Below are positions 4,331-33,844 of a stretch of 34,228 nt of DNA, in pieces. Origin of the DNA: Candidatus Omnitrophota bacterium (GTDB lineage Bacteria; Omnitrophota; Gorgyraeia; S143-82); the NCBI GenBank assembly GCA_027034965.1, contig JALVWL010000169.1, forward strand, positions 1 through 34,228, given 5' to 3'. The translations under genes and the position numbers were made by a program. The notes under the pieces are model-generated. The model ran no database searches, had not been told where the DNA came from, and saw only the letters and a program-made list of their open reading frames with translations. Position 1 is the first letter of the stretch. The number at the start of each line of letters is the position of its first letter.

Positions 4331-4376
4331 ATGCAATACCCTTTCAGTATCTTCTATATCATCATCTCGACTTACA

Positions 4377-4600
4377 CATTAAACCCGGATTATCCCGGAT
4401 TATGCATTAAAATCCTTCATCTTCCATCACTTGGTTAATCAAACATCTCTTTTCTTATCTAAAAATAAGCATGAAGAATGGAGCATGGAGAATGAAGGAA
4501 ATTTTTCATTAAGAAGGAAAAATATCCTAGTAAATAAAAATCCTTCATGCTCCCTTCTTCCTCCTCCATTCTCAAAACTTGAGTTGTGGTTTTTAGTTTT
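4377..4600. repeat. Intergenic repeat module, copy A (hairpin-forming, built from heptamer repeats)
   Basis: Copy A is collinear with 33494-33692. They share a 14-mer ccggattatgcatt (4395-4408) and an 81-nt core 4471-4551 that is 77/81 identical to 33572-33652. They also share cattctcaaaactt and gtttttagtt tails. Arms 4467-4499 and 4541-4573 are 24/33 complementary around a 41-nt loop. Confidence 0.9.
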
Positions 4601-4631
4601 GCGTTTTGAGTTTCTATTGCATATTTCGAAA

Positions 4632-5186
4632 TCATTTCTTCGTCAAGTCTTTTATATATACAAGCTTATTTGGGACAAAACCCCTATTCAAATAGGGCCG
4701 AATAACATAATCAGCACTCAAGGTATACACATAGGCAGGCAGGCTATATATATGTTTAGCCAATCTAGTCTTCTCGATAGAGCCCTCCAGGGCTTTCCAG
4801 GGAGACAGGTATATCCAGAAGGTAAACAGAGATGCACTTAATATACCAGCAATAGAACCAAGGACTATACCGAATAATTTTTCAAAGAGGCTTACCTGAC
4901 TGCCAGCAAGAAAGAATAGCAGCAACTCCCGAAATAATCGTATTACTATCATCAGACCAGTAAACAGTAATCCGAAGGCAATAAAATCGCCAAAACCTGT
5001 CGGAAGAACCGGCATCTTGACCTTAACAATATCTGTAACACGAGGATAAAAATGCAACGAAAATAAGAGGATAAACAACACTGCTATAACATTGTATATC
5101 CCGACTAGAAGTCCCCGCTTCACAGCGCTCAAAATAGATATCACAATCACAAGTAATATCAATGCATCCACAACTACGCTTATCAT
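4632..5186 (-). CDS. cvpA: CvpA-family integral membrane protein
   Basis: This 184-aa protein has four predicted TM helices and an N-terminus MISVVVDALILLVIVISILSAVKRGLL typical of the colicin V production (CvpA) family. A GGAGGTGA Shine-Dalgarno sequence lies 4 nt upstream. Confidence 0.6.
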   Translation of the reverse strand: MISVVVDALILLVIVISILSAVKRGLLVGIYNVIAVLFILLFSLHFYPRVTDIVKVKMPVLPTGFGDFIAFGLLFTGLMIVIRLFRELLLFFLAGSQVSLFEKLFGIVLGSIAGILSASLFTFWIYLSPWKALEGSIEKTRLAKHIYSLPAYVYTLSADYVIRPYLNRGFVPNKLVYIKDLTKK

Positions 5187-26023: not shown

Positions 26024-26036
26024 ATAATCACCTTCA

Positions 26037-26055
26037 AAAACTAAAAACCACAACT
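26037..26055. repeat. Fragment of the intergenic repeat family in the atpA-atpG spacer
   Basis: aaaactaaaaaccacaact is the exact reverse complement of 4582-4600 (agttgtggtttttagtttt), a 19/19 match. Confidence 0.7.
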
Positions 26056-26089
26056 AAAAGCTCAAAACCATCAATCTTTAAAATCGTAA

Positions 26090-33471: not shown

Positions 33472-33493
33472 AAGCACTCCCTATTTTCTAGAC

Positions 33494-33692
33494 ATTTTAA
33501 ACCGGATTATGCATTTTAGATAACTCAAAAGTCAAATCTCAAATCTCAAATCCACAACTTAAAACTTAAGAATGAAGAATGGAGCATGGAGAATGAAGGA
33601 AATTTTTTATTAAGAAGGAAAAAGATCCCAGTAAATAAGAATCCTTCATGCTTCATGCTTCATTCTCAAAACTTTGGTTACAGTTTTTAGTT
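33494..33692. repeat. Intergenic repeat module, copy B (hairpin-forming, built from heptamer repeats)
   Basis: See copy A for the shared elements. Arms 33577-33600 and 33642-33665 are complementary at 21/24 positions, with 2 further G-T pairs, around a 41-nt loop. Three tandem-heptamer blocks are present. Confidence 0.9.
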
Positions 33693-33751
33693 AATATTAT
33701 TGCGTAATTTTGATCTAATTATTCTAACATATCATATTGTAAAACAAAAAC

Positions 33752-33776
33752 ATAAAATTTTTAATAAAAATTTTAT
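33752..33776. repeat. Perfect 12+1+12 all-A/T palindrome
   Basis: The sequence is ataaaattttta-a-taaaaattttat. It lies in the very AT-rich stretch between the argG stop and repeat copy B. Confidence 0.85.
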
Positions 33777-33844
33777 AAAATTGCTGCCAATAAAGGGGCA
33801 TCAATTATCTCTCAATTAATAAATCCCCTTACCTCTGAGATTGC

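Follow-up and report, generated by a model that had tools for sequence, protein, structure and literature searches.

The two collinear modules that fill the large intergenic gaps of the window (the whole stretch of 34,228 nucleotides analysed here, a contig of Candidatus Omnitrophota bacterium) are very probably copies of a single non-autonomous MITE derived from the IS1380 family, with 17-bp terminal inverted repeats, 5-bp target duplications at WTWAW sites, a mosaic interior and about 170 loci in the genome. A sequence-only reading of the window had considered a leader or riboregulator common to two envelope operons, a regulator-binding platform and a MITE/REP-like element. The MITE half of the last option is borne out by the ~170 copies, the terminal inverted repeats, the 5-bp duplications, the empty sites in the sister species and the match of the terminal repeat to that of IS1380 insertion sequences.

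Anatomy and copy number of the element

Alignment of 4337-4631 with 33478-33844 recovers the collinear module in both gaps (~210-250 bp), and the window repeat search pairs 4461-4566 with 33562-33667 at 89% identity over 106 nt. The constituents that had been recognised from the sequence are all present in both copies: the exact 14-mer CCGGATTATGCATT, which corresponds to the left terminal inverted repeat, a core identical at 77 of 81 positions (4471-4551 and 33572-33652) and a shared tail. The element exceeds the extent first given for it, 4377-4600, running from 4384 or 4394 to 4629 in copy A and from 33501 to 33713 in copy B. The neighbours of copy A are cvpA (CvpA-like) and ccdA, those of copy B argG and a wzz-like gene, and all of these flanking genes are on the minus strand. 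The gene assignments made earlier hold, with DsbD_TM (ccdA) and thioredoxin-like proteins encoded downstream of copy A and a Wzz/GNVR protein downstream of copy B. The module is not restricted to two copies, ~170 loci being spread over the genome, and a specificity for envelope operons is not supported, since other copies adjoin unrelated genes and both window sites are empty in the closest relative.

Read on the plus strand of the window, the left end CCCGGATTATGCATTAG is followed by spacer S1 and/or S2, an optional second hairpin, the window-type hairpin (or, in some copies, an unrelated module of ~150 nt), a T-rich tail, optional further modules and finally the right end CTATTGCATAATTTGGG. 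This order is the same in every copy, the modules themselves being optional and the hairpin missing from some copies. CCCGGATTATGCATTAG and CTATTGCATAATTTGGG are mutually inverted 17-bp repeats, and 56 intact pairs delimit copies of 162-456 bp. The five bases outside each end follow the consensus WTWAW, and the 5-mers on the two sides are identical in 20 of the 56 elements; chance predicts 5, and the highest count in 5000 shuffles was 14. The coordinates of the features in the window are listed in Table 1.

Table 1. Features of copies A and B and of an isolated tail fragment in the window
Feature	Position	Strand	Basis or remark
Left flanking 5-mer of copy A, TTAAA	4379..4383		Target type WTWAW
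Additional incomplete left terminal repeat CCCGGATTAT; its last bases are the target-like ATTAT of the element itself	4384..4393		Sequence; same partial duplication on C9, C55, C167, C93
Left terminal inverted repeat, copy A, CCCGGATTATGCATTAA	4394..4410		1 mismatch to consensus CCCGGATTATGCATTAG; minus-strand -10-like CATAAT
Spacer module S1 ("B"), one of two alternative left-hand modules, copy A	4411..4470		Module dictionary and architectures
Hairpin module H1, copy A: purine-rich arm, A/T-rich loop, pyrimidine-rich arm	4471..4569		Folds; on the minus strand followed by GCUUAUUUUUAG
Tail module H, copy A, CTCAAAACTTGAGTTGTGGTTTTTAGTTTT...	4570..4613		~140 places genome-wide
Degenerate right terminal inverted repeat, copy A, CTATTGCATATTTCGA	4614..4629		Compared with consensus CTATTGCATAATTTGGG; abuts cvpA stop codon 4632-4634
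Isolated 20-22-nt fragment identical to tail module, opposite orientation	26036..26058		Inverted repeat; 16-mer run 26036-26055
Left target-site duplication, copy B, TTTAA	33496..33500		Sequence; empty site in sister species
Left terminal inverted repeat, copy B, ACCGGATTATGCATTTT	33501..33517		3 mismatches to consensus
Outward sigma-70-like promoter candidate, TTGACT-18 nt-CATAAT	33506..33535	-	Consensus scan, 10/12; wzz-like start 33477
Spacer module S2 ("C"), CTCAAA(A/T)(G)TC-type short repeats, copy B	33518..33571		Module dictionary and architectures
Hairpin module H1, copy B	33572..33667		Alignment, repeat search, copy folds
Tail module H, copy B, joined directly to right end ("J" type)	33668..33696		Sequence, architectures
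Right terminal inverted repeat, copy B, TTATTGCGTAATTTTGA	33697..33713		By-eye alignment to consensus CTATTGCATAATTTGGG
Right target-site duplication, copy B, TCTAA, 4/5 identical to left TTTAA	33714..33718		Reconstructed empty site agrees with sister species

Extra partial ends are seen in several places, either CCCGGATTAT before the left end (window 4384-4410, and contigs C9, C55, C167 and C93) or ATAATCTGGG after the right end (C14 and C229). As the terminal repeat itself contains ATTAT/ATAAT, which fits WTWAW, copies of this kind may have inserted into the end of a pre-existing one. On contig C173 (~164-260), a right end with a promoter-like module is followed by GCGGGAACTCCCCATCTGTAAAGATGGGGATGAGAGCC, a small stem-loop. 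The isolated tail fragment in the window sits at the junction of two ORFs and may be a remnant or a chance match.

In the assembly to which the window belongs (1.6 Mb in 250 contigs), the 81-nt core gave 214 first-look candidates, and the local BLAST depth along copy A (4387-4617) is 90-175x. Core loci number 89, and chaining of motifs yields 212 loci, 173 of which have at least three motifs in order; element ends total ~253. Together, the 173 loci measure 46.5 kb, i.e., 2.9% of the assembly and ~42% of its intergenic DNA (111 kb between called genes), and 16-mers with three or more occurrences make up 3.5% of the assembly. Contig ends are touched by 49 element loci, and much of the break-up of the assembly into 250 contigs is explained by this family. 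The element is non-coding, as differences of a single nucleotide in loop length between copies break any reading frame, which rules out a peptide-coding reading of the hairpin region; the plus-strand ORF at 4431-4841 is an example of a false call.

The long, imperfect hairpin is real, with folding energies in copy A of -40.8 kcal/mol (z = -4.4) for the minus strand and -40.2 kcal/mol (z = -3.5) for the plus strand. Across the genome, the hairpin cores (n = 72) have a median pairwise identity of 90% and a mean z of about -4 on both strands, which fold equally well (-30.9 vs -32.7 kcal/mol). The right arms of the two window copies do differ in sequence and remain complementary to the left arm, but this is due to low-complexity purine/pyrimidine arms and G-T wobble, not to compensation. 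No compensatory changes were found in the hairpin: the one variable stem position that was tabulated holds 42 A-T, 14 G-T, 3 A-C and 1 G-C, a one-sided pattern, and the consensus structure keeps only ~11 pairs over the whole alignment. Nor did the Rfam scan proposed in the sequence-only reading assign the element to a family. At the gathering threshold there is no match to the element (the only matches in the window being two tRNAs), and relaxed thresholds return generic hairpins only, at no more than 24 bits against cut-offs of 40-176.

Relation to IS1380 insertion sequences and history of insertion

An insertion sequence of IS1380 type was found with a Pfam DDE_Tnp_1_4 search in a genome of the same class, Candidatus Omnitrophica bacterium CG12_big_fil_rev_8_21_14_0_65_43_15 (G020). 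Its contig starts with ATTAA followed directly by CCCGGATTTTGCAATAG, and the complement CTATTGCAAAATC lies 1.4 kb further on, delimiting an insertion sequence of ~1.44 kb whose transposase (P0001, 429 aa) scores 262 bits against NF033539, the NCBIfam model for the IS1380 family transposase (cut-off 180). Transposases 73-76% identical to that of G020 occur in Planctomycetales, Chloroflexi and Alphaproteobacteria assemblies, within elements of ~1439 bp that have the same ends and A/T-rich flanks. The exact 17-mer CCCGGATTATGCAWTAG is found in more than 120 stretches across many phyla. Among the 80 stretches read, one holds an insertion sequence of Thermophagus xiamenensis (1393 bp) with the ends CCCGGATTATGTAATAG and CTAATGCATAATCCGGG (exact) and a 49% identical transposase. 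The same 80 stretches contain ~40 small end pairs, mostly of 140-280 bp and most with perfect 5-bp duplications. Five small-element interiors were read, and none resembles another or the window element.

The presence of the same terminal repeat on small elements across phyla therefore makes the window element one family within a wide group of IS1380-derived MITEs defined by their terminal inverted repeats; no description of IS1380-derived MITEs was found in the searchable literature. Small elements bounded by CCCGGATTATGCAWTAG (loci L097-L176) are seen in Bacteroidota, Calditrichota, Elusimicrobia, Verrucomicrobiota and others, and perfect 5-bp duplications are found in other phyla as well as in the sister species.

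The element resembles IS1380 insertion sequences (ISEcp1, ISPme1 and those of Omnitrophica CG12 and Thermophagus) in having ends that start with CC and an A/T-rich target duplication of 5 bp, and its 17-bp terminal repeat is identical to those of real IS1380 elements or differs from them at 1-2 positions. Target duplications of the IS1380 family measure 4-5 bp, and that of the element measures 5 bp. In contrast with these insertion sequences, the element has no transposase gene, is 160-460 bp long as opposed to ~1.4 kb, and reaches a copy number far above the usual. Its interior is unrelated to theirs beyond ~29 nt, alignment to the subterminal regions giving only a weak likeness outside the 17-bp terminal repeat, at most 29 nt from the end.

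A DDE_Tnp_1_4 search of the genus detected no IS1380 transposase in the window's genome or in that of its sister species, both assemblies being incomplete metagenomes, and tblastn of the window's own genome with an IS1380 transposase gave a best match of only E = 2. Likewise, neither an autonomous copy with matching ends nor a transposase between such ends was found in these incomplete assemblies. Several candidates for an autonomous partner were rejected. In the window's genome, end pairs 0.6-5 kb apart enclose ordinary genes, and the single DDE_Tnp_1 match belongs to an IS1634-like fragment whose ends are unrelated; what lies within the 1.9-kb candidate of the sister species is an AAA-ATPase/PD-(D/E)XK gene and no transposase. 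The IS1634-like transposase fragment (C133:2-859) lies at a contig end, and the region upstream of it is unlike the element ends.

The sister species is represented by a genome of the same genus (G003, Candidatus Omnitrophota bacterium S143_82), whose proteins around the window loci are 87-96% identical. It is the only one of 40 relatives with the element; 38 have no match, and a genome of the same class (G040) has a single marginal match of 28 nt (E = 8e-4). The sister genome holds 70 element ends, as opposed to 0 for the reversed control pattern. It is nevertheless empty at both window loci, where the flanks are 82-88% identical, its gaps measuring 29 nt vs 299 nt at the site of copy A and 8 nt vs 228 nt at that of copy B. 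Both window copies are recent insertions. Other insertions are common to the two species, and some are private to the sister species, with the site empty in the window's genome. Activity of the family therefore began before the species split and continued after it. At one shared insertion (C191 vs L084), the same TTCAT duplication is present and identity over the first ~125 nt is ~94%, and a different module takes the place of the central ~100 nt. This module swap at an orthologous insertion indicates that the mosaics were built by recombination between copies.

Placement, orientation and transcription signals

The genes of the assembly were called by codon-usage score (1470 genes), and only 52 of 1220 neighbouring pairs switch strand, i.e., 96% share it. 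None of the 173 element loci lies inside a gene, and the copies are fitted closely between their neighbours, the median distance being 19 nt both from the upstream stop to the right end and from the left end to the downstream start. Where the flanking genes are co-directional, one orientation is taken by 99 copies and the opposite one by 3 (97%); the corresponding count in the sister species is 8 vs 3. Random scatter of many copies with target-site duplications, including inside genes, had been named beforehand as the mark of a plain MITE. Many copies with duplications were indeed found, but they are not scattered at random, none lying inside genes and 97% sharing one orientation relative to the flanking genes. 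A transcription-related side effect may therefore exist. The GC skew of the coding strand is +0.21, and the skew of contigs tracks gene direction (r = 0.98). As the skew follows the coding strand and 96% of neighbours lie on the same strand, replication and transcription causes are inseparable in this genome, and either the insertion mechanism or the direction of replication could underlie the orientation bias.

The two ends of the element differ by CATTAG/CAATAG, as do the 3' and 5' ends of the insertion sequence of Thermophagus, and for the left end a slightly better alignment is obtained with insertion-sequence 3' ends. The former transposase gene thus probably ran in the orientation now favoured, a tentative assignment based on the asymmetry of one insertion sequence and on a weak match.

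Promoter-like motifs are concentrated on one strand. In the gene direction, a perfect extended -10 (TGnTATAAT), facing inward, occurs at a fixed position in 36 of 109 right ends, vs 1 on the other strand, and TATAAT in 64 of the 109. The module that carries TGnTATAAT is missing from both window copies. At the other end, an outward CATAAT inside the terminal repeat is found in 106 of 139 left ends, although a -35 with at least 4/6 matches accompanies only ~20% of left ends. In S2-type copies such as copy B, TTGACT lies 18 nt from CATAAT (10/12 matches), here ~29 nt upstream of the wzz-like start, and copy B may now contribute a promoter to this gene. This putative outward promoter would be a further likeness to IS1380, standing at the end that matches the transposase 3' end and having the same 18-nt spacing as in ISEcp1 (PMC9330008). 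The IS1380 members ISEcp1 and ISPme1 have strong outward promoters at their 3' end, that of ISEcp1 being TTGAAA-18-TACAAT (PMC9330008).

Read in the gene direction, the hairpin is followed by 12 nt with 5.8 T (copy A having the tract GCUUAUUUUUAG there), as opposed to 3.3 T in the reverse direction; the terminator scan found no canonical intrinsic terminator in either window copy. Elsewhere in the genome, solo element ends immediately precede a Shine-Dalgarno sequence and start codon (C100:4131, C112:2414 and C115:417). The right end on C100 has TGTGATATAAT and, ~25 nt later, GGAGG and ATG, as if the remnant were the promoter of the gene.

In the explanation that best accounts for these observations, the 17-bp terminal inverted repeats would be bound by an IS1380-type DDE transposase supplied in trans. 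The element inserts at WTWAW sites with a 5-bp duplication and has multiplied to ~170 loci, before and after the split from the sister species, and recombination between copies reshuffles its optional interior modules. Copies would be tolerated only when their strand-specific transcription signal runs with the neighbouring genes, antisense copies being purged; in the favoured orientation, the signal of the element could run into the downstream gene or would at least not work against it.

Purging is not the only conceivable source of the one-way arrangement. It is possible, if somewhat unlikely, that the element is a domesticated intergenic cassette, i.e., an ex-MITE kept for an RNA or transcription function in which hairpin and U-rich tract end or stabilise the upstream message and the end promoters restart transcription. 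Selection for such a function would account for the long time over which copies have persisted as well as for the 97% bias in orientation. The 99 vs 3 orientation count agrees with it, as do the median distances of 19 nt from the upstream stop and from the downstream start, the insertions shared across species (flanks 83-88% identical, outer modules ~94% over the first ~125 nt), the promoter-like sites and U-richer tract past the hairpin on the gene-direction strand, and the strength of the hairpin (about -40 kcal/mol). This hairpin, however, has no compensatory covariation and folds equally well on both strands, the modules are interchangeable with some copies lacking the hairpin altogether, and the high conservation of the ends is equally explained by gene conversion; moreover, the genes of the sister species manage without both window insertions. 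A purely mechanistic bias, in which a neutral MITE follows an IS1380-type insertion process coupled to the direction of the replication fork or of transcription, appears unlikely. With strand near-uniform within contigs (52/1220 switches), a bias linked to replication would look linked to genes, and the pathway by which IS1380 elements transpose is reportedly not known (PMC9330008). Yet the short, near-palindromic WTWAW target offers no orientation cue, and the weaker 8 vs 3 of the sister species, whose copies have the same ends, fits ongoing purging better, neither point being decisive.

The remaining readings concern the nature of the repeat itself. A cis-regulatory leader or riboregulator dedicated to the two envelope operons, as first proposed, would suit the position of both window copies just upstream of envelope-related genes, in the same orientation and with a stable hairpin; it is nonetheless highly improbable, given ~170 copies beside unrelated genes, the lack of both insertions in the closest relative, and the failure to find either an Rfam match at the gathering threshold or covariation. 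Spread of a REP/BIME-type element by a Y1 transposase (RAYT or IS200-like) is barely credible: the structure is a mosaic and intergenic, and the genome does have two Y1_Tnp matches, but Y1 elements make neither terminal inverted repeats nor 5-bp duplications, neither Y1 contig carries an element or an end, the sister species has the element and no Y1_Tnp match, and IS1380 insertion sequences have identical ends. The two Y1 matches (IS200/RAYT-type) lie at C65:3110-3475 and C162:1069-1392, one of them inside a 376-aa frame.

Likeness to other bacterial repeats and implications

The BIME/REP mosaics of enterobacteria share with the element an intergenic location and a build from short modules, and both may be attenuators or mRNA stabilisers. 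REPs are short GC-rich palindromes linked to RAYT Y1 proteins, without terminal repeats or duplications. The element, in contrast, has both terminal repeats and duplications, and no Y1 link. The Correia elements of Neisseria are, like it, high-copy MITEs with terminal repeats, but their terminal repeats, target (TA) and presumed parent family differ, and we know of no comparable one-way orientation among them. The creation of promoters for neighbouring genes has been reported for Correia elements (summarised in PMC3049150).

A structural parallel is found in the BOX elements of Streptococcus pneumoniae (boxA-boxB-boxC), which are likewise modular with optional, repeated internal modules, and which also combine terminal repeats, target duplications and strong secondary structure. 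The proposed mobiliser of BOX is a resident insertion sequence, a further point of likeness, and effects of BOX on the expression of neighbouring genes have been reported (PMC3049150). The two have no apparent sequence likeness, however, and their hosts belong to different phyla. The repeats of pneumococcus are over-represented between convergent genes and under-represented between co-transcribed ones (PMC3049150), whereas the element lies mostly between co-directional genes, at a median of 19 nt from each.

It is quite doubtful that the element has been co-opted genome-wide as a directional intergenic cassette, with the hairpin ending the upstream message and the end promoters restarting transcription at ~100 junctions. 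If this were so, a large share of the transcription-unit boundaries of the organism would be transposon-built, and the 97% orientation would be the footprint of function. In annotation, stretches such as those in the window should be masked as a repeat family and not called as leaders, sRNAs or ORFs. For a streamlined uncultured lineage with a 1.6-Mb genome, it is unusual that a single MITE family makes up ~40% of the intergenic DNA, and the near-absolute orientation rule amounts to a natural experiment on the tolerance of promoter-bearing transposon ends between genes. More widely, IS1380-derived MITEs are apparently a broad and under-described group.
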